From Thiobacillus sp. (GTDB lineage Bacteria; Pseudomonadota; Gammaproteobacteria; Burkholderiales; Thiobacillaceae), in contig JBEQCG010000005.1 of assembly GCA_041639395.1 (NCBI GenBank), forward strand, positions 4,854 to 68,853: a stretch of 64,000 nt of DNA, read 5' to 3'. The position numbers were made by a program, and so were the translations under genes. Every line of letters starts with the position of its first letter. The stretch's first letter is position 1. Below the pieces are notes generated by a model. That model was not told where the DNA came from. It saw nothing but the letters and a program-made list of their open reading frames with translations, and did not search any database. Below are positions 16,399-38,368 of this stretch, piece after piece.

Positions 16399-18747
16399 AT
16401 GCACGAAGCCACCAGCGGACACGCCTTCGGCGCGCCCGGCATCGCCCCCACCTGGACCTCCAGCGACAAGGATCTGGTCGGCACCGCGCTAGGCTCCGCG
16501 CGGCTGTGGTTCACGCTCGGCCACGGCATCGTCAACGAGGTGTACACCCCGCGCATCGACATTCCACAGGTGCGCGATCTGGGTTTCATCGTCGCCGACG
16601 GCGCGGGCTTCTGGATGGAGGTGAAACGACTGGGCGACTTCGACTGCACGCTGCCCGCACCCGGGGTGCCGTTGCCCGTCATCACGCATCGCCACCCGCG
16701 CTTCACGCTGACTGTGCGCGTCTGCCCCGACACCGCGCGCGACGTGCTGCTCATCGACGTGGCGTTGGCAGGCGACCCCGGGCTAGCCGTCTATGCGCTG
16801 CTGGCCCCGCATCTGGGCGGCACCGGGCAGGGCAACCGCGCGTGGGCCACGCGCTATCGCGGCACGCGCGTGCTGTGGGCGGAGCAGGGGCCGTTCGGGC
16901 TCGCGCTTGTCGCCCGTACGCCGGCAGGCGAGGACGGTTTTGCCAACGGCTCGGTGGGCTATGTTGGCGCGTCCGACGGCTGGCAGGATTTTCAGGCGCA
17001 CGGGCGCATGGCCTGGCAGTTCGATGCGGCCGGGCCGGGCAACGTGGCGCTGATGGGTCGGCTGGGGTCGCGCGCCACGCTGGCGCTGGGCTTTGCCAGC
17101 AGCAAGCAGGCCGCCGCCACGCTTGCGCGCGCCGCGCTGGCGCAGCCCTTCGACGCGCATCGCGCGGCACAACTGGCCGCCTGGCAGGGCTGGCACGCGC
17201 GCTGCGGGGCCACCGCGCCGCCGCCCGATCTGCCGGACGCGCTGCGCACCCTCTGGGTCGCGTCCGCGCAAGTGCTGAAAACCCACGCCGACAAGACCCA
17301 CCTGGGGGCCATGGTCGCCAGCCTGTCGATTCCCTGGGGCAATCGCGGCGAGGAACGCGGGGGATATCACTTGGTGTGGCCGCGCGATCTGGTCGAATCG
17401 GCCCAGGCGCTGATTGTGCTGGGCGGTCTGGACGAAGCGCGCCAGGTACTCGCGTACCTGCTCGCCACGCAGAACGACGACGGCCACTGGCACCAGAACC
17501 AGTGGCTCGGCGGCAAGCCGTACTGGGCCGGCGTACAGCTCGACGAAACCGCATTCCCCGTGCTGCTCGCCGCGCAGCTCGCCGAGCGCAACCAGCTCGC
17601 CGGCATCAACGTTGCCGACGGCGTGCGCCGCGCACTCGGTTTCCTCATCGCGCACGGCCCCGCCAGTCCGCAGGACCGCTGGGAAGAAGACGCCGGCGTC
17701 AACGCCTTCACGCTGGGCGCGTGCATCGCCGCGCTGGTCGGCGGCGCAGCCTGCCTGCCGCAAGACGAACGCGCGCTTGCGCTCGCCGTGGCCGACGACT
17801 GGAACGCGCGGCTCGAAGACTGGTGCGTGGCGCGCGACACGCCGCTGGGACGCGCACACGGCATCGCCGCCTACTACGCGCGCATCGCGCCGGCCGAGAT
17901 CGTCTGCGACGACCGCGCGATGCAGCGTCGCATCGCGGTGAAAAACCATGCCGACGGGCTGGCCCCTGAAGCCGATGAACAGGTCGCGCTGGATTTCCTG
18001 CAACTGGTGCGCCTGGGCCTGCGCCGTGCCGACGACGCGATCGTCGCCGACAGCGTGCGGCTCGCCGATGCGCTACTCAAGACCGACACCCCCGCCGGCC
18101 CGGTGTGGCACCGCTACACCGGCGACGGCTATGGCGAACACGACGACGGTACGCCGTTTGACGGCACCGGGCGCGGGCGCGGCTGGCCGCTCCTCACCGG
18201 CGAACGCGGCCATTACGCGCTCGCCGCCGGCGACGACCCGCTGCCGTATTTGCAAGCCATGGCCGCCATGGCCCCGCGCGGCCTGCTACCCGAACAGGTG
18301 TGGGACGCCGAGCCGGCCGGGCGGATGCAGCCCGGCCGCCCCACCGGCGGGGCCATGCCGCTGGTGTGGGCGCACGCCGAATTCATCAAGCTCGCCGCCG
18401 CGCGCGCCGCCGGCCGGCCACTGGAACGGCTGGACGCGGTGTGGGCACGCTATCGCGGCGAGCGCCTGCTGACGACCGCCCGCGTGTGGACGACCGCCGC
18501 GCCTTTCCTGCATCTGCCACGCGGTCTGGATGTGCTGCTGGCCCTACCGCATCCCGCCCGCCTGCACCTTGGCTGGAACGGCTGGGAAAACGCACGGGAC
18601 ATCGAATGCGAACCGCTCGGCCTGGGCCACTACGGCGTGCGGCTCGCCGCCGCCACGCTGGCCGCGCAGCAGAGCGTCGAATTCACCTGGCAGGACACGC
18701 GCGACGGCCGCTGGCACGACGCGCGTTACGCCATCACGCTGGGGTGA
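16399..18747 (+). CDS. Glucoamylase/glucodextranase, GH15
   Basis: WTSSDK N-terminus, YHLVWPRDL, DRWEE, LLPEQVWD, PLVWAHAEF. Confidence 0.9.
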   Translation: MHEATSGHAFGAPGIAPTWTSSDKDLVGTALGSARLWFTLGHGIVNEVYTPRIDIPQVRDLGFIVADGAGFWMEVKRLGDFDCTLPAPGVPLPVITHRHPRFTLTVRVCPDTARDVLLIDVALAGDPGLAVYALLAPHLGGTGQGNRAWATRYRGTRVLWAEQGPFGLALVARTPAGEDGFANGSVGYVGASDGWQDFQAHGRMAWQFDAAGPGNVALMGRLGSRATLALGFASSKQAAATLARAALAQPFDAHRAAQLAAWQGWHARCGATAPPPDLPDALRTLWVASAQVLKTHADKTHLGAMVASLSIPWGNRGEERGGYHLVWPRDLVESAQALIVLGGLDEARQVLAYLLATQNDDGHWHQNQWLGGKPYWAGVQLDETAFPVLLAAQLAERNQLAGINVADGVRRALGFLIAHGPASPQDRWEEDAGVNAFTLGACIAALVGGAACLPQDERALALAVADDWNARLEDWCVARDTPLGRAHGIAAYYARIAPAEIVCDDRAMQRRIAVKNHADGLAPEADEQVALDFLQLVRLGLRRADDAIVADSVRLADALLKTDTPAGPVWHRYTGDGYGEHDDGTPFDGTGRGRGWPLLTGERGHYALAAGDDPLPYLQAMAAMAPRGLLPEQVWDAEPAGRMQPGRPTGGAMPLVWAHAEFIKLAAARAAGRPLERLDAVWARYRGERLLTTARVWTTAAPFLHLPRGLDVLLALPHPARLHLGWNGWENARDIECEPLGLGHYGVRLAAATLAAQQSVEFTWQDTRDGRWHDARYAITLG

Positions 18748-22990: not shown

Positions 22991-23055
22991 CGGGGGAAAA
23001 CCCCCGGTCACCGGAGTGGGGGCTTTGCGCCAGCCGGGCCGGGGCATTTCCCCCG
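22991..23055. promoter_or_regulatory. Putative enhancer (UAS) array
   Basis: CGGGGGAAAACCCCCG (22991), weak TGGGGGCTTTGCGCCA (23017), CGGGGCATTTCCCCCG (23040). Confidence 0.6.
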
Positions 23056-23107: not shown

Positions 23108-23123
23108 TGGCACAGCGCCTGCA
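23108..23123 (+). promoter_or_regulatory. sigma54 -24/-12 promoter of yfdX-HK-RR-cyo
   Basis: TGGCAC-AGCGC-CTGCA, correct spacing, about 45 bp before ATG 23169. Confidence 0.7.
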
Positions 23124-24485: not shown

Positions 24486-25916
24486 ATGAAACGCATCTTC
24501 GTGCGCTCGCTGGCCTTTCCCGCGCTCGTTGCCGCCGGGCTGGTCGCGCTGGCGGTGGCGTTTGCGCTGGTGTCGCTGGCGCGCAATCTCGGGCAGTTCG
24601 AGCCGCTGCGCGCGCACACCGCCGCCATGCAGCGGGTGCAGGCGCAGAGTTTGGCCATGCAGTACGCGCTGGCGCGCACGCTGTCGCCCGACGCCCCCGT
24701 CGATCACGCCGTGTTCAGGCGGCTGCGCGACGAAGTCGACAGCCTCGTCGCCGACCCCGCGCTGCTCTCGCCGCAGGGGCAGGCGCGGCTCGAACGCGCG
24801 CGGGTGCTGCTCGACCAGCCGGGCAACGATCCGCGCGCGCAACTGCTCGCCGCCACCACCTTGCTGCACGAGGCGCTGGCCGACGAGAGCCGCGCGCACG
24901 ACGCCCTGCTCGCCAAGGTGGCGGCGCAGGCGCGCTTCGAATTCCAGCTGGTGGCGGCGGCGTTTGCCCTGCTGCTGCTCGCCGGCGCGGTGGCCTGGGT
25001 GGGCGTGCGTCGTCGCGTGCTCGAACCACTGCGCGATCTGGACGCCTGGATGGGACGGCTCGCACAGCATGATTTTTCGCGCATCGAGGCCCGTCGCGCC
25101 GACAGCCTGATTGCGCCGCTGTTTGCGCGCTACAACGCCATGGTCGAGCGGCTGGCCGAGCTCGAAGCCGCGCAGGCCGCGCGCGAAGCCAGCCTCGAAG
25201 CCGAAGTGCGCAGCGCTACCCGCGAACTCATCGCGCACAACCGCAGCCTGGCCGAAGCCGAAAAACTCGCCGCCGTCGGCGAACTCGCCGCGAGCCTCGC
25301 GCACGAACTGCGCAATCCGCTCGCCGGCATCACGCTCGCGCTTTCCAATCTCCAGCACGACCTGGCCGACCCGGCCGCGCGCGAGCGGCTCGCCGCCGTG
25401 CTCGCCGAGCTCACCCGGCTGGCGCGATTGATGAACCGTCTGCTCGACGCGGCGCGTCACGCGCCCGAAGCCGCGCAGCGCGTGCATCTGGCGCGTGCGG
25501 TCGAAGAAGTGGCGGCGCTGGCGCGCTACCAGATCGCGCCCGACATCCGGCTAGACGTGGACATCGACGTCGCCTGCCAGTGCCTGTTGCCGCCCGACCG
25601 CCTGCGCCAGGCCGTGCTCAACCTGCTGCTGAACGCCGCGCAGGCGCTGTCGGGACACGGCCGCATCCGTGTCGTCGGCCGGCGCGAACACGACACCGTC
25701 GAGCTGGCAGTGGAAGACGACGGCCCCGGCTTTCCCGAGGCGATGCTGCGCGACGGCGTGACCGCGTTTGCCAGCCACCGCGACGGCGGCACCGGGCTCG
25801 GGCTCGCGTCGGTGCGCCGTTTCGCGCAGGACCACGGCGGCCGCTTTGCGCTGGCCAATCTGAGCCCGCACGGCGCGCGCGTGTCGCTTTTTCTGCCTTG
25901 CCCCGAGCCTGCCTGA
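24486..25916 (+). CDS. Membrane sensor histidine kinase (2 TM, HAMP)
   Basis: AHELRNPLAGI H-box, NLLLNA N-box, DDGPG and GGTGLGL G-boxes. Confidence 0.93.
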   Translation: MKRIFVRSLAFPALVAAGLVALAVAFALVSLARNLGQFEPLRAHTAAMQRVQAQSLAMQYALARTLSPDAPVDHAVFRRLRDEVDSLVADPALLSPQGQARLERARVLLDQPGNDPRAQLLAATTLLHEALADESRAHDALLAKVAAQARFEFQLVAAAFALLLLAGAVAWVGVRRRVLEPLRDLDAWMGRLAQHDFSRIEARRADSLIAPLFARYNAMVERLAELEAAQAAREASLEAEVRSATRELIAHNRSLAEAEKLAAVGELAASLAHELRNPLAGITLALSNLQHDLADPAARERLAAVLAELTRLARLMNRLLDAARHAPEAAQRVHLARAVEEVAALARYQIAPDIRLDVDIDVACQCLLPPDRLRQAVLNLLLNAAQALSGHGRIRVVGRREHDTVELAVEDDGPGFPEAMLRDGVTAFASHRDGGTGLGLASVRRFAQDHGGRFALANLSPHGARVSLFLPCPEPA

Positions 25917-25918
25917 CC

Positions 25919-27295
25919 ATGCCGCACACGCTCCTCATCATCGAAGACGAAACCCTGCTCGGTCAGGAACTGCAACGCCATTTCCAGCGCGAAGGCTGGG
26001 ACGCGCGGCTCGCCAGCACGCTGGCCGAAGCACGCCGGCTGCTGTTCGATGAAGCGATCGAACCGTCGGCTGTGCTCTCCGACATGAACCTGCCCGACGG
26101 CAACGCGCTCGACCTGCTGGAGGCCGCGCGCGAAGCGGGGCTGGCGGGCGAATGGGTGTTCGTCACCGGCTACGGCGGCGTGCCCGATTCGGTGCGCGCG
26201 CTCAAATTGGGCGCGCTCGACTTTCTGGAAAAACCGGTCGATATGGCGCGGCTCGCGCTGGTGCTGAACGGCGCGGCGCGCAGCGCACGCGCCGAGCGGC
26301 GGCTGGCCGACCACACCGCCGGCGAAGGCCGGCGTTTCACGCCCGAAGCCTACGCCGGCGAATCGGCCGCCGCGCGCGAGGCGCGCGACATGCTGGCGCG
26401 GCTCGCCGGGGTGCCGTTTTCGGCGCTGTTGATCGGCGGCGAAACCGGCACCGGAAAGGGGCTCGCCGCGCGCATCCTGCATTACGCCGGGGCCCGCCGG
26501 CGCGGCCCGCTGGTCGAAGTGAACTGCGCCGCGCTGCCGCGCGAACTCATCGAAGGCGAACTCTTCGGCCACGAAGCCGGCGCGTTCACCGGTGCCAAGG
26601 GGGCGCGGCGCGGCCTGGTCGAACAGGCGCACGGCGGCACCTTGTTCCTCGACGAAATCGGCGAGCTGCCGCTGGATTTGCAGGCCAAACTGCTGCGCGT
26701 GATCGAGGACAGCCAGATCCGCCGTCTGGGCGGCGAACGCGCCGTGCCGGTGGACGTGCGCTTTGTCGCCGCGAGTAACCGCGACCTCGAAGCCGAGGCG
26801 CGCAACGGCGGCTTCCGCGCCGATCTCTATCACCGGCTGTCGGTGTTTCGCCTGGTGCTGCCGCCGCTGCGTGCGCGGCGCGAGGACATCCGTCAGCTGG
26901 TGCCGCTGTTCGTGCGCGAATTCAACGCCAAGGCCGGCAAGCGCGTGAGCCGCATTGGCGAGCCGGTGTGGTCGCAACTGCTCGCGCACGACTGGCCGGG
27001 CAACGTGCGCGAACTCCGCAACGTGGTCGAACGCTGCGTACTGTTCGCCGACGGCGAGGACTTTCCCGCGCGCTGGCTGCAACTGTCGGCCGCGCCGGCG
27101 TCGCCCGCGCCCGCCGGCGACGGCGTGTGGCTGCCGCTCGACGGCAGCCAGAGCCTGGAAGACATGGAACGCCAGCTGGTCGAAGCCGCGCTGGCGCAGG
27201 CCGGCGGCAACGTCACGGGGGCTGCGCGCCTCTTGAAAAGCACGCGCGAAACCCTGCGCTACCGGGTGGAGAAATTCGGCCTGGGCAAGGGCTGA
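25919..27295 (+). CDS. sigma54-dependent response regulator (NtrC/AtoC class)
   Basis: Receiver EDE..SDMNLPD..KP; GETGTGK, GAFTGA, LDEIG; Fis-type HTH. Confidence 0.95.
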   Translation: MPHTLLIIEDETLLGQELQRHFQREGWDARLASTLAEARRLLFDEAIEPSAVLSDMNLPDGNALDLLEAAREAGLAGEWVFVTGYGGVPDSVRALKLGALDFLEKPVDMARLALVLNGAARSARAERRLADHTAGEGRRFTPEAYAGESAAAREARDMLARLAGVPFSALLIGGETGTGKGLAARILHYAGARRRGPLVEVNCAALPRELIEGELFGHEAGAFTGAKGARRGLVEQAHGGTLFLDEIGELPLDLQAKLLRVIEDSQIRRLGGERAVPVDVRFVAASNRDLEAEARNGGFRADLYHRLSVFRLVLPPLRARREDIRQLVPLFVREFNAKAGKRVSRIGEPVWSQLLAHDWPGNVRELRNVVERCVLFADGEDFPARWLQLSAAPASPAPAGDGVWLPLDGSQSLEDMERQLVEAALAQAGGNVTGAARLLKSTRETLRYRVEKFGLGKG

Positions 27296-27312: not shown

Positions 27313-28200
27313 ATGGCAGGAAAGCGTTGGGCCGCGCTGGCGGCCACGATGTTGCTCGGCGGCTGCGCGCTGCGCGATGCGCCCATCATCGCGCCGCCGG
27401 GGCCGGTGCTGCACACCACGGCAGAACTCTTCGTCGTCGCCACGCTGCTGATGCTGATCGTGGTGCTGCCGGTACTGGTGCTGACCGCGTGGTTTGCCTG
27501 GCGCTACCGCGCGTCGCGCCGCGCGGCCGACTACGCGCCGGAGCTGGCCGGCTCGACGCGCATCGAGTTCTTCATCTGGGCAGCCCCCGTGGCCATCGTG
27601 CTCACCCTGGGCGTGCTGGTCTGGCATTACACGCACAAGCTCGATCCCTACCTGCCGCTGGGGCCCCAACCCTACGTCGTCGAGGCGATCGGGCTGGACT
27701 GGAAATGGCTGTTCCTGTACCCCGAGGACGGCGTCGCCAGCGTCGGCACGCTGGCGTTTCCGGCCGACCGCCCGCTGGAATTGCGCATCACCACCGACAC
27801 GGTGATGAATTCGCTGATGATCCCCGCGCTGGGCGGGCAGATTTACGCGATGGCCGGCATGGAGACGCGGCTCAATCTGAAGGCCGACCGCCCGGGCGTG
27901 TACGCGGGGCGCAACTACCAGTTTTCGGGCAACGGCTTTCCCGCGCAGCGCTTCGACGCGCACGCGCTCGACGCCGCCGGCTGGCAGGCCTGGCTGGCGG
28001 GCGCAAAGGCGGCCGGTGCGCTCGACCGGGCGGGCTATCTGGCGCTGGCCAAACCCGGTGTGCTGGCGTCGCCGCAGCTGTATTCGGCGTACCCCGCCAC
28101 GCTGTTCGACGCCATCGTCGGCCAGTACCGCGACCCGGCGATGTGCCGGCCCCTGTCCCTTGCTGCTGGAGCATCCCGTGTTCGGACGACTGGGCGTTGA
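27313..28200 (+). CDS. cyoA: Ubiquinol oxidase subunit II
   Basis: Lipobox LGGC, two TM, DWKWLF.YP, TVMNS..IPALGGQIYAMAGM; no CuA motif. Confidence 0.92.
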   Translation: MAGKRWAALAATMLLGGCALRDAPIIAPPGPVLHTTAELFVVATLLMLIVVLPVLVLTAWFAWRYRASRRAADYAPELAGSTRIEFFIWAAPVAIVLTLGVLVWHYTHKLDPYLPLGPQPYVVEAIGLDWKWLFLYPEDGVASVGTLAFPADRPLELRITTDTVMNSLMIPALGGQIYAMAGMETRLNLKADRPGVYAGRNYQFSGNGFPAQRFDAHALDAAGWQAWLAGAKAAGALDRAGYLALAKPGVLASPQLYSAYPATLFDAIVGQYRDPAMCRPLSLAAGASRVRTTGR

Positions 28201-30139
28201 CGCGCTTCCCTTCTACAGCGGCATCGCGGCCGGCGGTGCGCTGGTCACCGTGCTGGGCGCGCTGGCGATTGCCGCGCTGCTCACCCGTTACCGCAAGTGG
28301 GGCGTGCTGTGGCGCGACTGGCTGACCAGTTGCGACCACAAGAAAATCGGCATCATGTACATCGTCATCGCGCTGGTGATGCTGCTGCGCGGCTTCATCG
28401 ACGCGGCGATGATGCGCGCGCAGCAGGCGATGGCGCTGGACAGCGGCGGCTATCTGCCGGCCGAGCATTTCGCGCAGATTTTTTCCTCGCACGGCACGAT
28501 CATGATCTTCTTCGTGGCGATGCCGTTTCTCACCGGGCTCATCAATTTCGTCGTGCCGCTGCAACTCGGCAAGCGCGACATGACCTATCCCTTCCTCAAT
28601 CTGGCGAGCCTGGCGCTGACCGCCGCCGGGGCCGGGCTGATGCTCCTGAGCCTGGCGCTGGGGCGCTTTTCCACCGCCGGCTGGACCGGCTATCCGCCGT
28701 ATTCGGAGCTGGGCTTCAGCCCGGGCGTGGGCGTCGATTACTGGATCTGGGCGACCATGCTCGCCGGCGTCGGCTCGACCCTGTCGGGGGTGAACTTCAT
28801 CGCCACCATCCTGTTCGAGCGCGCGCCGGGCATGACGCTGATGCGCATGCCCATGTTCTCCTGGACGGCGCTGTGCGCATCGATCCTGATGGTGTTCGCG
28901 TTTCCCGGGCTGACCGTCGCCACGCTGATGCTGGCGCTCGACCGCGCGTTTGATTTCCAGTTTTTCAGCAACGGGCTCGGCAACCCCATGCTGTACATCA
29001 ACCTGTTCTGGATCTGGGGCCACCCCGAGGTATACATCCTCATCTTGCCGGCCTTTGGCGTGTTTTCCGAAGTGGTGGCGACCTTCTCGCGCAAGACGCT
29101 GTTCGGCTATCCCTCGATGGTGTATGCCACCGCCGCCATCGCGCTGTTGTCCTTTGGCGTGTGGCTGCATCACTTTTTCACCATGGGCGCGTCGGCGAAC
29201 GTCAACGCCGCCTTCGGCATTGCCACCATGGTGATCGCGATTCCCACCGGGGTGAAGGTGTACGACTGGCTGTTCACGATGCATCGCGGGCGCATCGAAT
29301 TCCACTCGTCGATGCTGTGGGCGATGGCCTTCATGGTCACCTTCGTCATCGGCGGCATGACCGGCGTGATGCTGGCGATTCCGCCCATCGACTACCTGGT
29401 GCACAACACCGCTTTCCTCGTCGCGCACTTTCACAACATGCTCATCCCCGGCGCGCTGTTCGGCTACTTTGCCGGCTACGCCTACTGGTTTCCCAAGGCC
29501 TTTGGCTTCACCCTCGACGAACGCTGGGGCAAGCGCGCGGTCGGTTTCTGGGTGGCGGGTTTCTGGCTCGCCTTCATGCCGCTGTACGCGCTGGGTTTTC
29601 TGGGCATGCCCCGGCGCATGGAGCAATACAGCGATCCCGCCTGGCAGCCGCTTTTGATCGTCGCCGCCGTCGGCGCGGGGCTCATCGCCTGCGGCATCGC
29701 CAGCCAGATCGTGCAGCTGGTGGTGTCGATCCGCCGGCGCGCGGCGCTGAGGGATACCACCGGCGACCCGTGGGACGGCCGCACGCTCGAATGGGCCACC
29801 GCCTCGCCGCCACCACCGTGGAACTTTGCCGCCACCCCGGTGGTGCACGGGCTCGACGCCTACGCCGCGATCAAGGCCGGGCGCGCGCCGGCGGACACAT
29901 TGCCGCTGACCGACATCGAACTGCCGCGCAACACGCCGCTGGGCGTGGCGGTGCTGGGGCTGTCTTTCCTGTTCGGCTTCGCCATGATCTGGTGGATATG
30001 GTGGCTGGCCGTGCTCGCCGGGCTGGGGCTGCTCGGTGTCATCCTCCTGCGCGCCTTCGACGACCATCCAGAGAAAACCGTATCCGCCGCCGAGCTTGCG
30101 CGCGACGATGACACTACGCTTGCGGAGGGCCGCGCATGA
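28178..30139 (+). CDS. cyoB: Ubiquinol oxidase (bo3-type) subunit I
   Basis: GTG start after GGAG (MFGRLG); HGTIM, WGHPEVY, WLHH, HFHN; quinol-site R/D/H/Q equivalents (RGFIDA, HFAQ). Confidence 0.95.
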   Translation: MFGRLGVDALPFYSGIAAGGALVTVLGALAIAALLTRYRKWGVLWRDWLTSCDHKKIGIMYIVIALVMLLRGFIDAAMMRAQQAMALDSGGYLPAEHFAQIFSSHGTIMIFFVAMPFLTGLINFVVPLQLGKRDMTYPFLNLASLALTAAGAGLMLLSLALGRFSTAGWTGYPPYSELGFSPGVGVDYWIWATMLAGVGSTLSGVNFIATILFERAPGMTLMRMPMFSWTALCASILMVFAFPGLTVATLMLALDRAFDFQFFSNGLGNPMLYINLFWIWGHPEVYILILPAFGVFSEVVATFSRKTLFGYPSMVYATAAIALLSFGVWLHHFFTMGASANVNAAFGIATMVIAIPTGVKVYDWLFTMHRGRIEFHSSMLWAMAFMVTFVIGGMTGVMLAIPPIDYLVHNTAFLVAHFHNMLIPGALFGYFAGYAYWFPKAFGFTLDERWGKRAVGFWVAGFWLAFMPLYALGFLGMPRRMEQYSDPAWQPLLIVAAVGAGLIACGIASQIVQLVVSIRRRAALRDTTGDPWDGRTLEWATASPPPPWNFAATPVVHGLDAYAAIKAGRAPADTLPLTDIELPRNTPLGVAVLGLSFLFGFAMIWWIWWLAVLAGLGLLGVILLRAFDDHPEKTVSAAELARDDDTTLAEGRA

Positions 30140-30741
30140 ATACGCTTGCCACACACGCCCCGCACGACGAAGCCAATGCCCCCGACAACAGCGTCGTCGC
30201 GCTGGGCTTCTGGATTTTTTTGCTCTCCGACCTGGTGCTGTTCCTGCTGCTCCTCACCAGCTATCTGGCGCTGCTGCCCAACACCGGCAGCGGGCCCGGC
30301 CCCACCGCCTTGTTCGACCTGTCGCGCACCGCGCTGCAAACCGGCGCGCTGCTCCTGTCCAGCCTCACCTGCGGGCTGGCGACACTGGCGCTGGGCGAAG
30401 CCCGCCGCCGCGCGCTGCTGGGCTGGCTCATCGCCACAGCGCTGTTCGGGGTGGCTTTCATCGGCCTGGAACTGGCCGAATTCAGTGGCTTGCTCGCGCG
30501 CGGCGCGGCCCCGCAGGCAAGCGGTTTTCTGTCCGCTTACTGGTTGCTGGTCTCGACCCACGGCGTGCACGTCAGCGCCGGCCTCGTGTGGATCGTGGTG
30601 CTCGCGGCGCAGATCGGGCTGCGCGGACTCACGCCCCGCATCGTCTCGCGCTTCACGCGCTTTGCGCTGTTCTGGCACATGCTCGACGTGGTCTGGATCG
30701 GCATCTATTCCTTTGTGTATCTGTACGGGAGCCTGCCATGA
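30136..30741 (+). CDS. cyoC: Ubiquinol oxidase subunit III
   Basis: GFWIFLLSD, FLSAYWLLVSTHGVHV, FWHMLDVVW. Confidence 0.93.
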   Translation: MNTLATHAPHDEANAPDNSVVALGFWIFLLSDLVLFLLLLTSYLALLPNTGSGPGPTALFDLSRTALQTGALLLSSLTCGLATLALGEARRRALLGWLIATALFGVAFIGLELAEFSGLLARGAAPQASGFLSAYWLLVSTHGVHVSAGLVWIVVLAAQIGLRGLTPRIVSRFTRFALFWHMLDVVWIGIYSFVYLYGSLP

Positions 30742-31028
30742 CGCGCACGCAACTGGCCGCCGGATTCGCGCTTGCCGTGGGCCTCACGGTGCTGCCCTTC
30801 GCGGCGGTCATGGGCGGCGCGCTGTCGCGCGAATCGCTGCTGGCGCTGATCGCCGGCAGCGGACTGTTCCAGGTGGTGGTGCACCTGCGGCTGTTTCTCG
30901 ACCTGCGCAGCGGCGGGCGCGGCACCGCGCGCGTGCTCGCCACCGTATTCGGCGTGCTGCTGATGGCGATCATGCTGGTGGGCACGCTGTGGGTGATGCG
31001 CGATCTGCACCTGCGCATGATGCTGTAA
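30738..31028 (+). CDS. cyoD: Ubiquinol oxidase subunit IV
   Basis: QVVVHLRLFL, GTLWVM; ATGA overlap with cyoC. Confidence 0.9.
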   Translation: MTRTQLAAGFALAVGLTVLPFAAVMGGALSRESLLALIAGSGLFQVVVHLRLFLDLRSGGRGTARVLATVFGVLLMAIMLVGTLWVMRDLHLRMML

Positions 31029-33117: not shown

Positions 33118-33222
33118 CGGGGCATACGCGCCAATCGAAACGGGGGATATCCCCCGATTGCTGGCGCTTCCCAGAATAATCCAAGCTGAATCAATCGGTT
33201 GCGATCTGGCACACAGCCTGCT
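33118..33222 (+). promoter_or_regulatory. UAS + IHF site + sigma54 promoter of the sqr operon
   Basis: CGGGGGATATCCCCCG (33141-33156); AATCAATCGGTTG exact IHF consensus (33189-33201); TGGCAC-ACAGC-CTGCT (33207-33222). Confidence 0.75.
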
Positions 33223-33266
33223 GTAAGGGAGTCATCCACGCTCGCGTGTTTATTCAGGAGACTCCC

Positions 33267-34565
33267 ATGACCCCACAAATTCCCTCGTCCCGTCCGCACG
33301 TTGTCGTGCTGGGCGGCAATTTTGCCGGCTTTGGCGCGGCGCAGAAAATCCGTGAATTCGCCGGCGACGCGGTGCGCATCACCGTGGTGGATCGCAAGTC
33401 GCGCCTGCTCTACGTGCCCAATATTCCGCTCGAAGTGTTCGAGAACCGCAACCCGGCGGCGAGCCTGTTCATGGACATCGTCAAGCCGCTGGCCGACGAC
33501 GGCATCGACTTTGTGCGCGCCGAGGTGAACGCCATCGACCCGGTGGCCTCGACGGTGACGTGGACGCCCGACGAGCGTCCCGGCGCGGCGAGCGAAACCC
33601 ACGGCTACGACTATCTGGTGGTGGCGCTGGGCAACCGGCTGGCGTTCGACCGCATCGAGGGCTACGCCGAACACGGCCACAGCCTCACCGACACGGTGCA
33701 GGGCGAAAAGCTGCGCCGCTACCTGCACGAAGACTATCGCGGCGGGCCGATTGCCATCGGCTCGGCGCGCTTTCACCAGGGCGACGGCGCACGCGGGCTG
33801 GAACCCTACCCGCACGGTTCGATTCCCTACGCGCTGGCCGCCTGCGAAGGCCCGCCGGTGGAGGTGATGCTGTCGATGGCCGACTGGCTGAAGCGGCACA
33901 AACAGGGCGGCCCGGACAAGGTCACCGTGTTCACGCCGGGCGAATTGATCGCCGAGGACGCGGGGGTGCAGGTGGTCGATCAGCTGCTCGGTATCGCCGG
34001 CAAGATGGGCTTCCACTATCTCAACAAGGTCGGTGACATCGAACGCCTCACTGCGCACGGCGTCGAGTTTGCCGATGGCCGCAGCGTCGAGGCCGAACTC
34101 AAGATCGTGTTCCCCGACTGGCGCGCGCACGAATTCCTGCGCGGCCTGCCGATTGCCGACAGCGAAGGTTTCATCGTCACCGATCTCACCATGCGCAACC
34201 CGGCGTTCCCGAACGTGTTTGCGGTGGGCGACTGCGCAGCGGTGACGGTGCCCAAGCTCGGTGCCATCGGTCACCAGCAGGCCGAGATCGTCGGCCGCCG
34301 GCTCGCGCACGAACTCGGCCGGCTGGACGACCCCGGCGAGCCGCTCGCACCGGTGGTGTACTGCATCGGCGACATGGGTAGCGGCCAGGCGTTTTACATC
34401 CGCTCCAACAGCTGGTTCGGCGGCGACACCCAGGTGCTGAAAATGGGCCGCGTGCCGCATCTCTTGAAGATGCACTACAAGACGATGTTCTACGAACGCC
34501 ACGGCAAGGTGCCGGCCTGGGGGCTGGATGCCGCCGAGCTGCTGGCGGAAAAAGTGTTTGCCTGA
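33267..34565 (+). CDS. sqr: Sulfide:quinone oxidoreductase (type V/SqrE-like)
   Basis: VVVLGGNFAG FAD fold, ACEGP and YCIGDMG cysteine pair, AVGD..VPKLG. Confidence 0.78.
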   Translation: MTPQIPSSRPHVVVLGGNFAGFGAAQKIREFAGDAVRITVVDRKSRLLYVPNIPLEVFENRNPAASLFMDIVKPLADDGIDFVRAEVNAIDPVASTVTWTPDERPGAASETHGYDYLVVALGNRLAFDRIEGYAEHGHSLTDTVQGEKLRRYLHEDYRGGPIAIGSARFHQGDGARGLEPYPHGSIPYALAACEGPPVEVMLSMADWLKRHKQGGPDKVTVFTPGELIAEDAGVQVVDQLLGIAGKMGFHYLNKVGDIERLTAHGVEFADGRSVEAELKIVFPDWRAHEFLRGLPIADSEGFIVTDLTMRNPAFPNVFAVGDCAAVTVPKLGAIGHQQAEIVGRRLAHELGRLDDPGEPLAPVVYCIGDMGSGQAFYIRSNSWFGGDTQVLKMGRVPHLLKMHYKTMFYERHGKVPAWGLDAAELLAEKVFA

Positions 34566-34710
34566 CGCAGCCCGTGCTGCGCGTTGTTACCCAACGGGTA
34601 GGGCGACTGGATGCGCCGGATCATGGAACGCCCTACCCGTTTCCCTCACCCCGGCCCTCTCCCGCAAGCGGGAGAGGGGGACGCAGCCAACGCTGCGCGT
34701 TGTTACCCAA
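34564..34710. repeat. Composite palindromic element: 31-bp direct repeats flanking two hairpins
   Basis: 34564-34594 vs 34680-34710 (28/31); GTAGGGCG/CGCCCTAC IR; CCCTCTCCCGC-AA-GCGGGAGAGGG hairpin. Confidence 0.65.
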
Positions 34711-34727: not shown

Positions 34728-34943
34728 ATGGCCAATGCCCTGCAACGGGAAGCGATCCCGACCCTCAACGCCGGAGGTGATTTCGCCTCGGTCGTGCTGC
34801 GCGTGCTGCTCGGCGCGGCGATGCTGTTGTGGCTCGCCGCCGGCATGTTCGTGTGGACGGCGCTCGCGCTGTTCACCCTGCTGCTGGCGACGCTGCGCCT
34901 GCCCTTCGTGCTGCTGGGGCGCCTGATGGCGCGTCGGCCATGA
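34728..34943 (+). CDS. Small membrane protein (71 aa)
   Basis: AAGGAG RBS, long hydrophobic stretch, ATGA overlap with emrA. Confidence 0.7.
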   Translation: MANALQREAIPTLNAGGDFASVVLRVLLGAAMLLWLAAGMFVWTALALFTLLLATLRLPFVLLGRLMARRP

Positions 34944-35932
34944 CGCGGGGGCGCATCGTGGCGATCGCGCTGGTGTGCTCTGCGGTGGCGCTGGCGGGTG
35001 GCGCGGCCTGGTGGCGCGTGGCCAGCCGCGAGGTGTCGACCAGCGACGCCTACGTCGGCGCGCAGGTGGTGCAGATCGCGCCGCAGATCGGCGGGCGGGT
35101 GAATTCGGTCGCGGTGTGGGAAGGCCAGTCGGTGAAGCGCGGCGACGTGCTGTTCCGCATCGACCCGGCCCCCTACGAACTGGCGCTCGACGCCGCGCGC
35201 GCGCGGCTTACCCAGGCGCGCGAAGGCGCGCGCGCCGGGCAGGCGGCGGTGGGCGCGGCGCGCGCCGAAGTGCAGGCACAGGCGCAAACCGCGCACAACG
35301 CCGAATCGCTCGCGGCGCGCGACACCGCGCTGGTGGCACGCGGCTTTCTCTCACCGCAGGCCGGCGAAACGGTCGACGCCCAGGCCGCCGCGGCGCGCGC
35401 GGCCACCCGCGCCGCGCGCGAACGCGAAGCGCAGGCGGTGGCCGCCGCCGGCGCGGCGGGGCGCGACAACGCCGGCATTCGCGCGGCCGAGGCGGCGCTC
35501 GCGCAGGCGCAGCTCGATCTGGCGCACACCGTGGTGCGCGCGCCGGCCGACGGGCGCATCAGCCAGTTGACGTTGCGGCCCGGAGCCATGGTCGAGGCCA
35601 GCACGCCGCTGTTCGCGCTGGTCGATTCGAGCCGCTACTGGGTCGATGCCAACTTCAAGGAAACCGATCTGGCGCAGATCCGCAGCGGGCAGCGCGCCAG
35701 GGTCACGCTCGACATGCAGCCCGGCCAGGTGTACCGGGGGTCGGTGATCGCCATCGGTGCCGGGGCGGGCAGCGCGTTTTCGCTGCTGCCGCCAGAAAAC
35801 GCCAGCGGCAACTGGGTGAAGGTGACGCAGCGGGTGCCGGTGCGCATCCTGCTCGACGGCGTCGAAGCGGGTGCACTGCCGGCGGTGGGTGCCAGCGCAA
35901 CCGCCACGGTGATGCTTGGCCATGACGGCTGA
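34940..35932 (+). CDS. emrA: EmrA/HlyD-family membrane fusion protein
   Basis: STSDAYV, APQIGGRV, VDANFKET, PPENASGNWVKVTQRVPVRI. Confidence 0.9.
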   Translation: MTRGRIVAIALVCSAVALAGGAAWWRVASREVSTSDAYVGAQVVQIAPQIGGRVNSVAVWEGQSVKRGDVLFRIDPAPYELALDAARARLTQAREGARAGQAAVGAARAEVQAQAQTAHNAESLAARDTALVARGFLSPQAGETVDAQAAAARAATRAAREREAQAVAAAGAAGRDNAGIRAAEAALAQAQLDLAHTVVRAPADGRISQLTLRPGAMVEASTPLFALVDSSRYWVDANFKETDLAQIRSGQRARVTLDMQPGQVYRGSVIAIGAGAGSAFSLLPPENASGNWVKVTQRVPVRILLDGVEAGALPAVGASATATVMLGHDG

Positions 35933-37457
35933 ATCCGGCCGCACCGAACCCAACCGCGCGCTCATCATCCTCGCGGTGATGAGCGCCGCCGTGCTGGTGG
36001 TGCTCGACATGACCATCGTCAACGTGGCGATGCCGCACATGGCGGGCGCGCTGGGGGCCAGTCAGGAAGAAATCAGCTGGGTGCTCACCAGCTATCTGGT
36101 GGCGTCCGCCGTGTTCATGCCGCTCACCGGGTTTCTGGTCGACCGTTACGGCCAGCGCCGCGTGCTGCTGGTGTCGATAGCCGGCTTCGTGACCGCCTCG
36201 GCGGCCTGCGGGCTGGCGCAGAATCTTTCGACCATGCTGATTTTTCGTGGCTTGCAAGGCCTATTCGGGGCCTCGCTGGTGCCGCTGTCGCAGGCCATCC
36301 TCACCGCCGTCACGCCGCCCGAACAGCGTGGCCGCGCGATGGCGCTGTGGGGCATGGGCGTGATGCTGGGGCCGGTGCTGGGCCCCACGCTCGGCGGCTG
36401 GCTCACCGAAACTTTCGACTGGCGCTGGATTTTCTACATCAACCTGCCGGTGGGGCTGATGGCGCTGGCGATCGGTGCGCGCGCGGTGCCCGAATCGGCG
36501 CGCATCGCGCGCGTGCTCGACTGGCGCGGTCTGGCGCTGGCGTCGGTGGCGATTGCCGCGCTGCAATTCGCGCTCGACCGGGGCAACACCGACGGCTGGC
36601 TGGGGTCGCCCGTCATCGTCGGCTGTTTCGTGCTGTCAGCCACGGCTTTCGTCGCCTTTCTGGCGTATGCGCTGACGACCAAACGGCATCCGGTGTTCGA
36701 CCTCCACGTCTTCGCCGACCGCAATTTCGCCACCGCGTCGGCGATCATCGGCGTGCTGGGCCTCGGCATGTTCGGCGCGCTGGCGGTGCAGCCGGTGATG
36801 CTCGAAACCCTGCTCGGTTACCCCGCGCTTACCGCCGGCGAAGTGATGGCCCCGCGCGGGCTGGCGAGCCTGTTGGCGATGGTCGTCGCCGGTCGCCTGA
36901 TTGGCCGCGTCGATACGCGCTGGATCGTCGGCAGCGGCATGCTGCTTGCGGCCGCCGGCAGCTACGCCATGGCCGGACTCACGCTCGATCTGTCGCCCTG
37001 GCAGGCGGTGTGGCCGGGCCTGCTGCAAGGCGCGGGCATGGGGCTGATGATGGTGCCGCTGTCGGCGCTTGCGCTGTCCACGCTCAAGCCTGCGATGCAG
37101 GCCGAGGCGGCGGGCATTTTCAGCTTGGTGCGCACGCTTGGTTCGTCGGTGGGCATCGCCGTCGTCGCCAGCGTAGTGAGCCGGCAGACGCAGACCATGT
37201 GGCAGCAGCTCGGCGCGCACGTCGATCCCTACAACCCGGCGCTTGGCACCTGGCTGGAACGCCTGCACGCCACCCCGCACGACCCGCAGGCGATGGCGGT
37301 CGTCACCGCCGAACTCGCGCGCCAGGCGTCGATGCAGGGCGTGCTCGACGCCTACGCGCTGATCGCCTGGAGTTTCCTCGCCATGCTGCCGCTGCTGGGC
37401 TTCCTGCACGGCGGCAAGGTGGCGCGTCCCCAGGCTGCGCCGGCGGAGGCGGGGTGA
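35922..37457 (+). CDS. emrB: DHA2 MFS transporter, EmrB-like
   Basis: LDMTIVNVAMP, WVLTSYLV, GPVLGPTLGGWLT, WRWIFYINLPVG. Confidence 0.9.
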   Translation: MTAESGRTEPNRALIILAVMSAAVLVVLDMTIVNVAMPHMAGALGASQEEISWVLTSYLVASAVFMPLTGFLVDRYGQRRVLLVSIAGFVTASAACGLAQNLSTMLIFRGLQGLFGASLVPLSQAILTAVTPPEQRGRAMALWGMGVMLGPVLGPTLGGWLTETFDWRWIFYINLPVGLMALAIGARAVPESARIARVLDWRGLALASVAIAALQFALDRGNTDGWLGSPVIVGCFVLSATAFVAFLAYALTTKRHPVFDLHVFADRNFATASAIIGVLGLGMFGALAVQPVMLETLLGYPALTAGEVMAPRGLASLLAMVVAGRLIGRVDTRWIVGSGMLLAAAGSYAMAGLTLDLSPWQAVWPGLLQGAGMGLMMVPLSALALSTLKPAMQAEAAGIFSLVRTLGSSVGIAVVASVVSRQTQTMWQQLGAHVDPYNPALGTWLERLHATPHDPQAMAVVTAELARQASMQGVLDAYALIAWSFLAMLPLLGFLHGGKVARPQAAPAEAG

Positions 37458-38368
37458 AGCCGCCCCTTTGGCAGGCCGTCGCAGCCTTGCTTGTCATTGC
37501 CGTTGCGCTGCTGGGGTGGCATCGCAGCAGCGACACGGTGCCGGCCGGCGCGCCGGCCGTGCCGTCGGCGCAGGCGGTTCAGCGCGCTGCGGCGGCACAG
37601 GTACGCGTCGAAGCGCCGGGCGGCGTCGGCAGCGGGCTGCGTCTCGACGACAGCGGCGACGTGCTGGCCGCAGCCGGCGTGCTTGGCGGCGCGGGTACGG
37701 TGAACGTGCGCGACGCGCTCGGCGTGCAGCATCGCGCGCAGGTGCGCGGCGTCGATCGGGTGACCGGGCTGGCGCTGCTGGAAACCGCCGCGCTTGCGGG
37801 CGGGCCGCTGGACTTCGACGCGGTGGAAACGCTCCGCGCCGGGCAGGCGGTCTACGCGCTCGGGGCGGACACGACCTCGCGCGGGCAGGTGACGCAGGCC
37901 GCCAGTACGCTGGCTGGCGCGGCCGACGTGGCGGTGATCGTCACCGACGCCCGCGCCTGTCCGCAAGACGCCGGCGGCGCACTGGCCGACGCCGCCGGGC
38001 GCATCGTCGGCGTGCTGCTGCCGCTGCCGCGCTGCGGCCACGCCATTGCGCTGCCGCTCGCCGCCGCGCACCGGCTGGCGGCGCAACTCAAAACCGGCGG
38101 CCACGCCCGGCGCGGCTGGATCGGCGTCACCGTGGCAGACACCGCCGGCGGCGTGCGCATCGAGTCGGTTGTGCCGGACAGCCCTGCCGCGCAAGCCGGC
38201 CTGCGCGTCGGCGATACGGTGATCGCGTGCGACGGGGCGCTGCCGCGTGCCGCAGGATTTGCCCCGCGCGTGGCGGCGATGCCGCCCGGCCACGATGCCG
38301 CACTGACCATCCGGCGCGACGGCCATGTCCTGGGTGTGACCGTCATCGTGGCGGAGGCGCCGGCGTAG
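37454..38368 (+). CDS. HtrA/DegS-like trypsin-fold + PDZ protein, catalytic triad absent
   Basis: GTG start overlapping emrB stop; TM anchor, GSG motif, RRGWIGV PDZ; triad positions read LAAAGVL, VTGLALL, QDAGG. Confidence 0.75.
   Translation: MKPPLWQAVAALLVIAVALLGWHRSSDTVPAGAPAVPSAQAVQRAAAAQVRVEAPGGVGSGLRLDDSGDVLAAAGVLGGAGTVNVRDALGVQHRAQVRGVDRVTGLALLETAALAGGPLDFDAVETLRAGQAVYALGADTTSRGQVTQAASTLAGAADVAVIVTDARACPQDAGGALADAAGRIVGVLLPLPRCGHAIALPLAAAHRLAAQLKTGGHARRGWIGVTVADTAGGVRIESVVPDSPAAQAGLRVGDTVIACDGALPRAAGFAPRVAAMPPGHDAALTIRRDGHVLGVTVIVAEAPA

Follow-up and report, generated by a model that had tools for sequence, protein, structure and literature searches.

A bacterial SqrE-type sulfide:quinone oxidoreductase homologue with threonine at the flavin-link position, encoded in a predicted sigma54-promoted operon of Thiobacillus sp.

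Results

An sqrE-like gene at the head of a predicted operon

The window, as we call the whole 64,000-nucleotide stretch of Thiobacillus sp. DNA that was analysed, carries an sqrE-like gene encoding a 432-aa homologue of type V sulfide:quinone oxidoreductases (SQRs), together with the features listed in Table 1. The ATG start codon lies 6 nt past an AGGAG sequence (33256-33260); an alternative GTG start at 33246 would give a longer product and is less likely. The translation contains GGPIAIGSARFHQG, AACEGP, VPKLG, YCIGD, SWFGG and HSLTDT, which include every motif quoted in an earlier note made from this DNA. The protein matches the Pfam family Pyr_redox_2 and lacks a signal peptide in its translation, with the Rossmann fold beginning at residue 11. 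Selection on the gene gave a dN/dS of 0.12 against a 91%-identical orthologue, within a range of 0.12-0.32 across the comparisons made.

Table 1. Features of the sqrE locus, in window coordinates
Feature	Position	Strand	Basis or remark
Histidine kinase and sigma54-dependent response regulator genes	24486..27295	+	Pfam
Haem-copper quinol oxidase subunits I, III and IV (cyo-like), 5' of sqrE	28016..31028	+	Pfam COX1 (E 3e-141), COX3, COX4_pro
16-bp palindrome CGGGGGATATCCCCCG, candidate enhancer site for the neighbouring sigma54 activator	33141..33156	.	Role inferred
Sigma54-type promoter TGGCAC-N5-CTGCT, ~45 bp 5' of the start codon	33207..33222	+	Predicted, read from sequence
sqrE-like gene, 432-aa type V-related SQR homologue (P0001)	33267..34565	+	ORF, translation
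Thr141 codon ACC, at the position of A. ambivalens Cys129 (covalent FAD link, YSVCEP)	33687..33689	+	phmmer alignment
Cys193 codon (AACEGP), equivalent of A. ambivalens Cys178, redox-active Cys	33843..33845	+	phmmer alignment
Cys366 codon (VVYCIGD), equivalent of A. ambivalens Cys350, redox-active Cys	34362..34364	+	phmmer alignment
REP/MITE-like insertion between sqrE and the next gene	34576..34710	.	Two strong hairpins, flanking 19-bp direct repeat
71-aa small membrane protein gene	34728..34943	+	Directly after sqrE in closest relatives (71-aa gene in L010-L012)
EmrA/HlyD-type membrane fusion protein gene	34940..35932	+	Pfam HlyD_3, HlyD_D23
EmrB-type MFS transporter gene	35916..37457	+	Pfam MFS_1, E 1.5e-58
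HtrA-like gene, final gene of the operon	37454..38368	+	Pfam Trypsin_2 and PDZ_2

The candidate sigma54 promoter upstream of the gene has its GG and GC elements at -24/-12 spacing. A similar promoter motif is found at 23108 and is likewise accompanied by a similar palindrome, a second copy with the sequence CGGGGGAAAACCCCCG at 22991-23006. Orthologues of the histidine kinase and sigma54 regulator pair were detected by tblastn upstream of sqrE at six further loci (L010, L015, L031, L032, L033 and L034). The association of sqrE with an efflux pump and a sigma54 regulon of the stress type is not in itself indicative of sulfide.

Downstream, the 162-nt spacer that follows sqrE folds strongly (-78 kcal/mol, z -4.05). 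In relatives, the spacer between the same two genes is only ~10 bp. The REP/MITE-like insertion within it is bounded by the 19-bp direct repeat GCTGCGCGTTGTTACCCAA at 34576-34594 and 34692-34710, and parts of the element are repeated ~10 times in the genome. No Pfam family was found for the 71-aa small membrane protein; the start of the EmrA/HlyD-type gene overlaps its stop. The EmrA/HlyD-type gene occurs in the same order at loci L010 and L031, and the EmrB-type transporter is 83% identical at L010. As read from the promoter motif and gene order, sqrE is the first gene of a predicted sigma54-promoted operon that continues with the 71-aa protein, EmrA, EmrB and the HtrA-like protein.

The protein resembles the archaeal type V enzyme in sequence and fold

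The best PDB sequence match of the 432-aa protein is the Acidianus ambivalens SQR (3H8I/3H8L), with ~30% identity. For 3h8i_A, phmmer returned an E-value of 6.9e-51 and 176.7 bits, aligning query residues 11-408 with chain residues 3-392, a similarity far exceeding chance as scored from sequence. The next PDB matches were type I (58 bits), human type II (44 bits) and FCSD (37 bits). For a sister sequence, P0124, 3h8i is also the best match, at 217 bits. An AlphaFold (AF2) model of the protein had a pLDDT of 93.6, and its best Foldseek match was again 3h8i (TMt 0.85), the top 19 fold matches all being SQRs.

General SQR features are present, namely a fold of two dinucleotide-binding domains, the N-terminal FAD Rossmann motif, the GD motif and C-terminal amphipathic helices; residues G16, G21, G321 and D322 are conserved (alignment A1). 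The long loop before the first redox cysteine, a candidate for the extended capping loop of type V enzymes, is confidently modelled and, at query residues 167-192 aligned with 153-177 of the A. ambivalens enzyme, differs from its counterpart by only two residues in length. The two enzymes share the CEGP and VPKLG motifs and the lack of a signal peptide. Unlike the archaeal enzyme, the query has a C-terminus that is ~7 residues longer, with two helices predicted at 395-410 and 418-431 in the AF2 model, and it belongs to a deep, separate bacterial branch and comes from a mesophilic host.

Several other assignments were rejected. Type I (SqrA), marked by closeness to the A. aeolicus and A. ferrooxidans enzymes and by three conserved Cys, was ruled out by low scores (58 bits to 3hyv, 44 bits to 3sz0) and by placement in a different clade. 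The top NCBIfam match, type III (SqrC), was ruled out because NF049943 scored 68.5 bits where its cutoff is 525. Representatives of the type III-like group scored 205-290 bits and, with the Tyr at the flavin-link position that goes with this type, form separate Y/C/C clades in the tree. NDH-2/FCSD structures reached at most 38 bits, which, together with the missing signal peptide and the position of the genome's own FccB-like/NDH-2 paralogues outside the SQR clade, ruled out this family as well.

The query belongs to a large bacterial branch

A maximum likelihood tree places the query clade and P0124 together with 100/100 support, inside a 99/95 clade that holds the Acidianus, Thermoplasma and Saccharolobus enzymes. 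Within it, the query clade is sister (92/74) to those archaeal enzymes plus a bacterial Cys-bearing group, and its stem measures 0.57 + 0.83 substitutions per site. Sequences that fall outside the type V-containing clade include the type I SQR of this genome, the type III-like proteins and FccB. The query thus groups with the A. ambivalens SQR, as expected of type V/SqrE in the sense of Marcia 2010 and Sousa 2018, in a tree that set it against type I, type III-like and FccB sequences and not against types IV and VI. A phylogeny had been proposed in the earlier note, which judged that the protein matches A. ambivalens SQR better than typical proteobacterial type I or II enzymes; the PDB scores, the model scores and the tree all bear this out, also with regard to type III-like sequences, FCSD and NDH-2.

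The closest relatives of the query are all bacterial, at 53-92% identity, while the archaeal enzymes lie on a separate branch at 28-34% identity. Direct transfer from an archaeon was therefore ruled out, and with so deep a split nothing suggests a direct archaeal donor. The bacterial clade numbers at least 239 sequences, including Acidithiobacillus, Acidihalobacter, Thiobacillus, Sulfobacillus, Chlorobium and Rhodobacteraceae, and the homologue search returned at least 858 matches at E<=1e-5 among the 8000 candidates scored. Its wider members from Chlorobium sp., Acidithiobacillus, Sulfobacillus and Acidiferrobacter, at 53-67% identity, carry the pattern S/T / C / C at the flavin-link position and the two redox cysteines.

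The open reading frame encodes a member of the bacterial SqrE branch, a large group akin to the archaeal type V SQRs, and the finding is real but ordinary. This does not agree with the earlier description of an unusual SQR lineage in a betaproteobacterium, since the clade is large, Ser or Thr is the rule in it, and such genes, betaproteobacterial ones included, are already in the literature: SqrE has been reported in Acidithiobacillus (PMC5148195), and type V/SqrE genes are listed for C. tepidum (NP_661769), Thiomonas intermedia (ZP_05500015) and Ignavibacterium (IALB_0172). Their match to the query clade is drawn from organism names rather than exact accessions, and the sigma54/EmrAB operon context is not described for them. 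The branch is apparently without a biochemically characterised member: in the literature we found no published activity for the listed proteins and no published assay of any bacterial SqrE-clade enzyme.

Redox cysteines are invariant and the flavin-link cysteine is replaced

In the A. ambivalens enzyme, a type V SQR, FAD is linked to a Cys and a trisulfide bridge joins C178 and C350 (PMC8551704). The two redox-active cysteines that characterise the SQR family (C178/C350 in A. ambivalens, C156/C347 in A. aeolicus) are present in the query as Cys193 and Cys366. Both are invariant in the 237 clade members examined (120 + 117), the Cys366 column also being invariant across alignment A1. CEGP and PKLG do not vary either. 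By contrast, the covalent Cys-FAD linkage that is a type V trait lacks its residue here: Thr141 aligns with Cys129 of A. ambivalens, which agrees with the earlier reading that the flavin-linking cysteine is absent.

This replacement is not peculiar to the query. Among the 239 sequences of the bacterial clade, the flavin-link column holds Ser in 159, Thr in 63, Ala in 7 and Cys in 10. On this alignment the flavin-tethering cysteine is replaced almost everywhere in the bacterial SqrE branch, and its absence is normal for the branch as a whole. The Cys-bearing members are nested and scattered, with at least six state changes in the column; gradual loss with Cys-bearing members at the base was thereby ruled out, and the Cys states would represent regains or local retention.

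No other residue offers itself as a tether. The only further cysteine in the query, Cys323 (VGDCAAV), is kept in just 25 of 120 close homologues, and His138, near the flavin-link position, varies among relatives (GHS, GDS, GFS); as neither is conserved, an alternative tether at either residue was ruled out. Given a local motif with no other conserved Cys or His, it is a reasonable inference that FAD is most likely bound non-covalently in this branch. Several SQRs function with non-covalent FAD. One is reportedly the type I SQR of A. ferrooxidans (3T31), in which Cys128 is said to be non-essential; this enzyme resembles the query in fold (TM ~0.75) and in its two essential cysteines, but shares only ~20% identity and falls in a different clade. 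Its engineered Cys128Ser and Cys128Ala variants (3SZW, 3SXI) mimic the natural Ser/Thr/Ala state of the query clade. Human mitochondrial SQOR (type II; 6OI5) likewise combines a two-Cys active site with non-covalent FAD, and shares the fold (TM ~0.75) and a GDC motif after the second FAD-binding element; it differs in its ~20% identity, its soluble sulfane acceptor and its clade.

SqrE neighbourhoods and probable horizontal acquisition

SOR and DUF1641 recur as neighbours of SqrE in the bacterial branch. At 6 of 19 orthologue loci, SOR lies directly upstream of SqrE on the same strand and DUF1641 directly downstream; at a seventh, in Novosphingobium, SOR is directly downstream of SqrE, and DUF1641 follows SqrE at 9 of the 19 loci overall. 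This arrangement gives indirect support to a sulfide-oxidising role for SqrE, and the partnership with SOR recalls the Acidianus pathway. Cytochrome bd genes adjoin SqrE in Thiobacillus sp., Thermomonas and genome G275, and in Thermomonas a thioredoxin gene and a BLH/DUF442 phosphatase gene do so too.

Among the genomes sampled at each rank, 1 of 121 in the order carried the gene, as did 3 of 121 in the family, these three belonging to a single genus; the class sample gave 11 of 400. It sits within a block of 69-72% GC, against 62.6% for the genome. This patchy occurrence and the GC-rich block indicate that the gene was likely acquired horizontally, a transfer that had previously been raised as a possibility. 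A mis-binned contig was ruled out: contig C5 as a whole has a GC content of 63.4%, like the genome, and only its 15-45 kb stretch is GC-rich, which points to an island and not to contamination. The same genome encodes a true type I SQR (contig C3, 240788-242086; 552 bits to 3sz0) and three FccB/SoxF-like proteins. Neither SOR nor DUF1641 was found in it.

Discussion

Proposed function

We consider it probable, from the sequence, its relatives and its genomic setting, that the gene encodes a bacterial SqrE-branch SQR with non-covalently bound FAD, an accessory acquired gene in a sigma54 operon that serves inducible detoxification. The protein would most likely be a monotopic membrane flavoprotein on the cytoplasmic side, given that its Rossmann fold starts at residue 11 and no signal peptide precedes it. 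By homology with the A. ambivalens enzyme, Cys193 and Cys366 would hold a (poly)sulfide bridge that sulfide attacks; two electrons would travel through FAD to quinone in the membrane, and polysulfide or sulfane would be released as the product. With Ser or Thr (Thr141 here) in place of the tethering cysteine, FAD would most likely be held non-covalently.

In many Gammaproteobacteria, SqrE would act within the SOR-SqrE-DUF1641 cluster by re-oxidising the H2S made by SOR. The lack of these two partners in the present genome counts against the explanation that we favour. Here the operon lies just downstream of the quinol oxidase and the sigma54 two-component system, and the role is more likely to be inducible detoxification of sulfide, with the quinol passed on to the oxidase, than main sulfide respiration, for which the type I SQR and the three FccB/SoxF-like proteins would be available. 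On this picture, the sulfur oxidiser would supplement its type I SQR and FccB/SoxF-type sulfide dehydrogenases with an SqrE-type accessory enzyme, encoded on an acquired island and under predicted sigma54 control. As an annotation this is of modest weight; the more useful general result is the large Ser/Thr SqrE branch with its links to SOR and DUF1641.

One published observation touches on the activity of the branch. As Han & Perner 2015 recount it, citing Chan 2009, C. tepidum with its type IV and VI genes deleted had no membrane SQR activity left; C. tepidum carries the type V homologue NP_661769, and the result counts against detectable SQR activity of the branch under the conditions used.

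Alternative explanations

The setting of the gene would also suit an enzyme that keeps the SQR fold and two-Cys chemistry and acts on something other than free sulfide: a quinone-linked oxidoreductase for a persulfide, a polysulfide, a low-molecular-weight thiol or another stress-related compound, working with the EmrAB-type pump in a sigma54-controlled envelope or acid-stress response. In the window and the closest relatives, the gene shares an operon with the small TM protein, EmrA, EmrB and the HtrA-like protein, and this operon sits behind a YfdX/sigma54 two-component system; the genome is without SOR and DUF1641. The second-hand account of no residual SQR activity in the C. tepidum deletion strain points the same way, and the stem of 0.83 substitutions per site from the Cys-bearing relatives permits a functional shift. 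We nevertheless regard a different substrate as rather unlikely, since the SQR redox cysteines, CEGP and PKLG are all invariant, the top fold and sequence matches are all bona fide SQRs, and sulfide as the substrate best accounts for SOR and SqrE being so tightly and repeatedly linked in other families. Far less probable is that FAD is still covalently bound through a histidyl, tyrosyl or seryl/threonyl link instead of the equivalent of Cys129. The flavin-link column toggles among S, T, C and rarely A and seems to have regained Cys several times, which suggests that the side chain still contacts the flavin; on the other hand, seven clade members have Ala at this position, the neighbouring His138 is unconserved and no other cysteine is conserved. 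O-linked 8-alpha flavinylation via Ser or Thr does not, to our knowledge, count among the established linkages.

A patchy distribution, a high-GC island and a repeat element inserted directly behind the gene might also be expected of a decaying or non-functional passenger. That sqrE is such a passenger is hardly credible, however, with an intact frame, the dN/dS of 0.12 against the nearest orthologue, catalytic and FAD-binding motifs all in place, and a predicted promoter and ribosome-binding site. More speculative than our preferred detoxifying SQR, and in our judgement improbable, is the view that the bacterial SqrE branch is a distinct two-Cys, non-covalent-FAD flavoprotein rather than a classical respiratory SQR, normally a quinone-coupling partner of SOR and DUF1641 that in this Thiobacillus-like lineage would have been recruited to a sigma54 stress regulon alongside an EmrAB-type pump. 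Were this true, the pump would export the sulfane or organic persulfide product of SqrE, or SqrE would detoxify the substrate of the pump.

A type V-like sulfide:quinone oxidoreductase

The start codon of the sqrE-like gene lies 6 nt downstream of a ribosome-binding AGGAG, and an alternative in-frame GTG at 33246 is the less likely start. Among PDB sequences, phmmer places Acidianus ambivalens (Aa) SQR first (3h8i/3h8l, deposited under the title 'NADH oxidase'; E 6.9e-51, 176.7 bits), followed by A. aeolicus type I (58 bits), human type II and A. ferrooxidans type I (44 bits), FCSD (37 bits) and NDH-2 (33 bits). The sole Pfam match is Pyr_redox_2, and the top NCBIfam match, the type III selenoprotein SQR model, scores 68.5 bits where its cutoff is 525. 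The protein's AlphaFold2 model, made from an alignment of 70 sequences (mean pLDDT 93.6, pTM 0.91), again retrieved 3h8i first with Foldseek against the PDB (E 6e-32, TMt 0.85), then type I and type II SQRs, then NDH-2 and FCSD. Two C-terminal helices, at residues 395–410 and 418–431, were modeled at lower confidence and would match expectation for a monotopic membrane anchor.

AaSQR is a type V enzyme with a Cys-FAD linkage, in which three sulfur atoms bridge C178 and C350 (PMC8551704). In the phmmer alignment to 3h8i, Aa Cys129 (YSVCEP) corresponds to Thr141 of the query (HSLTDT), Cys178 to Cys193 (AACEGP) and Cys350 to Cys366 (VVYCIGD). The earlier note had found the Aa enzyme a better match than typical proteobacterial type I/II SQRs and read HSLTDT at the place of the FAD-linking Cys; this observation is correct in every detail, and every motif it quoted occurs in the translation.

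Features in and around the sqrE operon (window coordinates)
Feature	Position	Strand	Basis
High-GC block	~15000-40000		
GH15 glucoamylase-like gene	16447-18738		
16-bp palindrome upstream of sqrE	33141-33156		sequence reading
Sigma54-type promoter motif, TGGCAC-N5-CTGCT	33207-33222		sequence reading
sqrE-like ORF, 432 aa, intact, ATG start	33267-34565	+	ORF translation
116-bp REP/MITE-like insertion, between sqrE stop and 71-aa gene	34576-34710		

The query belongs to a large bacterial SqrE branch

A homologue search scoring 8000 candidates returned at least 858 sequences at E≤1e-5, the best 120 of which are 64–92% identical to the query. Sources of these 120 include Hydrogenophilales, Thiobacillus, Acidithiobacillus, Acidihalobacter, Metallibacterium, Thermomonas, Novosphingobium and Thioalkalispiraceae, and the JGI label sulfide:quinone oxidoreductase is common among them. 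In a library clustered at 50%, the query and all 120 are represented by a single sequence, P0122 (61%); next among full-length relatives comes P0124 (42%), a metagenomic singleton, and sequences beyond it stand at 28–34%. Seeding a search with P0124 widened the clade to Sulfobacillus thermosulfidooxidans, Desulfosporosinus, Thermodesulfobium, Chlorobium sp., Acidiferrobacter, Rhizomicrobium and several Rhodobacteraceae, at 53–64% identity to the query. Named type V anchors from the Sulfolobales (Acidianus brierleyi, A. sulfidivorans, Acidianus sp. RZ1, Metallosphaera and Saccharolobus) came from a search with a Thermoplasma representative, P0138.

These relationships were placed on an IQ-TREE phylogeny of 70 sequences (LG+C20+F+G4 PMSF), in which authentic type IV and type VI references were not included. 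P0124 groups with the query clade (100/100), and both are nested in a 99/95 clade with the archaeal Acidianus/Thermoplasma group. Also within it are a three-cysteine bacterial group (Venenivibrio, Saprospiraceae and others) and a small group with C/C/W at the Aa Cys129/Cys178/Cys350 positions. The sister of the query clade is a pair of archaeal and Cys-bearing bacterial groups, with moderate support (92/74). Because the genome's own type I SQR (contig C3:240788-242086; 552 bits to A. ferrooxidans 3sz0), type III-like Y/C/C clades (205–290 bits to NF049943) and the genome's FccB/SoxF-like proteins all lie well outside the 99/95 clade, the query does not cluster with types I–III, NDH-2 or FCSD, and the proposed resemblance to archaeal type V over other SQRs holds. 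In type VI the second cysteine is placed differently according to the literature, whereas the query retains the Aa-type CEGP cysteine. The SQR family assignment is right.

The same genome encodes a second SQR-like flavoprotein outside the window (within C1:439705-446346), of ~378 aa and with a C/R/C pattern lacking the first redox cysteine. It shares 56% identity with a 376-aa protein adjoining SqrE in Thermomonas, and its gene directly follows cydAB-like genes near a sigma54 regulator.

Bacterial members of this branch have been catalogued before. Type V/SqrE genes of Thiomonas intermedia and C. tepidum (NP_661769) are in published SQR reference sets; SqrE has been reported in Ignavibacterium and in Acidithiobacillus thiooxidans populations (PMC5148195); and type V has been described in Sulfurimonas autotrophica, in a paper whose tree also puts Sulfobacillus sequences in the type V lineage. 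We found no biochemical characterisation of any bacterial type V/SqrE member in the literature, and sulfide:quinone activity of the branch is putative. That a whole branch has no assayed member that we could find is mildly interesting.

Lack of the flavin-link cysteine is the norm in the clade

Among 239 bacterial clade members, the Cys129 column holds Ser in 159, Thr in 63, Cys in 10 and Ala in 7, and both redox cysteines are invariant in two clade sets (120 and 117 sequences). Thr141 is thus typical of the clade rather than special to this organism. The finding is real, but the earlier note's 'unusual SQR lineage' does not stand, since the features so described are the rule across a large bacterial branch that had already been catalogued.

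Most nearest outgroups carry Cys at this position, namely P0124, the three-cysteine bacterial group and all archaeal sequences. Within the clade, the members with Cys are scattered over nested positions of the tree (depth 4–13), with at least six state changes in total. The simplest history is one Cys loss on the clade's long stem (0.83 substitutions per site), then a few regains. The nearby His138 is variable among clade homologues (GHS, GDS, GFS) and Cys323 occurs in only 25 of 120 close homologues, so no alternative flavin tether is conserved in the local motif. Judged from these residues, the natural reading is that FAD would be bound non-covalently, as it is in A. ferrooxidans SQR and human SQOR. 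For the A. ferrooxidans enzyme, the PDB includes engineered forms with Cys128Ser and Cys128Ala. Such variants reportedly keep activity.

Distribution and likely acquisition

Among sampled genomes, an sqrE orthologue is present in 1 of 121 from the order, in 3 of 121 from the family (all of the window's own genus, at least 20 other genomes of which are without it) and in 11 of 400 from the class, across many families at 53–69% identity. GC content is 62.6% for the genome, 63.4% for the contig (C5) and 69–72% for C5 20–45 kb, a block covering the YfdX/sigma54 regulator genes, quinol oxidase, ClC, DUF1345 and the sqrE-emrAB operon. Neighboring ClC, EmrA and HtrA-like genes reach 74–76%; sqrE itself, at 66%, is not atypical. 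The block looks like an acquired island, and this together with the patchy distribution makes horizontal acquisition from a bacterial donor likely, in keeping with the suggestion that the gene was possibly transferred.

Gene neighborhoods and the case for sulfide

Downstream of sqrE, genes for a 71-aa membrane protein and EmrA-like, EmrB-like and HtrA-like proteins follow with overlapping starts and stops, an order common to the two closest relatives. The upstream region encodes a haem-copper quinol oxidase, of which subunits I, III and IV were confirmed, along with a histidine kinase, a sigma54 regulator and a DUF1345 protein; a ClC channel gene lies there on the opposite strand. A variant of the upstream palindrome recurs with a second sigma54 motif near 23000. 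An inducible route from sulfide through quinone to quinol oxidase is a reasonable reading for this organism. The sigma54/EmrAB setting is unusual and mildly interesting.

Nineteen orthologue loci in other genomes were scanned with a panel of neighbor proteins. In six (L013 from Acidihalobacter ferrooxydans, L033, L034, L035, L037 and L042), sulfur oxygenase reductase (SOR, PF07682) is encoded immediately upstream in the same orientation and a DUF1641 protein immediately downstream; in Novosphingobium ZN18A2, SOR is directly downstream of sqrE instead. SOR makes H2S in the cytoplasm, and an adjoining cytoplasm-facing SQR reproduces the Acidianus arrangement, in which the same two enzymes are paired (PMC8551704). 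A whole-assembly search found no SOR or DUF1641 homologue here, and SOR linkage elsewhere is the best available functional evidence that sulfide may be the substrate.

The conserved SOR-SqrE-DUF1641 cluster spans several gammaproteobacterial families (6996-10202 in L013); in some loci the gene for a homologous sigma54 response regulator stands ahead of it, accompanied by a kinase gene in L033. The pair in the alphaproteobacterium Novosphingobium sp. ZN18A2 (L018, 4605-9369) adjoins IS21-family IstB and retropepsin-like genes, which suggests a recent move by a mobile element.

A DUF1641-type protein is encoded 3' of sqrE in 9 of the 19 loci. The copies from Acidihalobacter and Acidithiobacillus are homologues of each other (E 1.8e-46), and both reach the Pfam DUF1641 threshold. 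This partner is an uncharacterised protein of ~280 aa. In B. subtilis, YjlC is a DUF1641 protein and YjlD an NDH-2; the two are modeled as a pair in a PDB entry, which suggests that partnership with DUF1641 proteins is general in this flavoprotein superfamily.

Other neighbors include cytochrome bd genes (Thiobacillus sp., Thermomonas and genome G275), a thioredoxin and a BLH/DUF442-type phosphatase gene 3' of sqrE in Thermomonas, and an upstream sigma54 response regulator homologue, mostly with a histidine kinase, in L010/L031, L015, L032, L033 and L034. In Hydrogenophilales 16-64-46 the sigma54 regulator directly abuts sqrE. A GH15 glucoamylase-like gene lies within a few kb of sqrE here and in L013, L014, L015 and L031, which are unrelated genomes, often accompanied by SDR, GMC-oxidoreductase and MFS genes; the reason for this link is not evident.

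A repeat element inserted after sqrE

The gap between sqrE and the 71-aa gene is ~10 bp in relatives and here holds a REP/MITE-like element, flanked on both sides by the 19-bp direct repeat GCTGCGCGTTGTTACCCAA. Two strong hairpins lie within the element, and the spacer folds at −78 kcal/mol (z −4.05); the element is not followed by a T-run and is therefore not an obvious terminator. Its core palindrome, CCCTCTCCCGCAAGCGGGAGAGGG, has ~10 copies in the genome.
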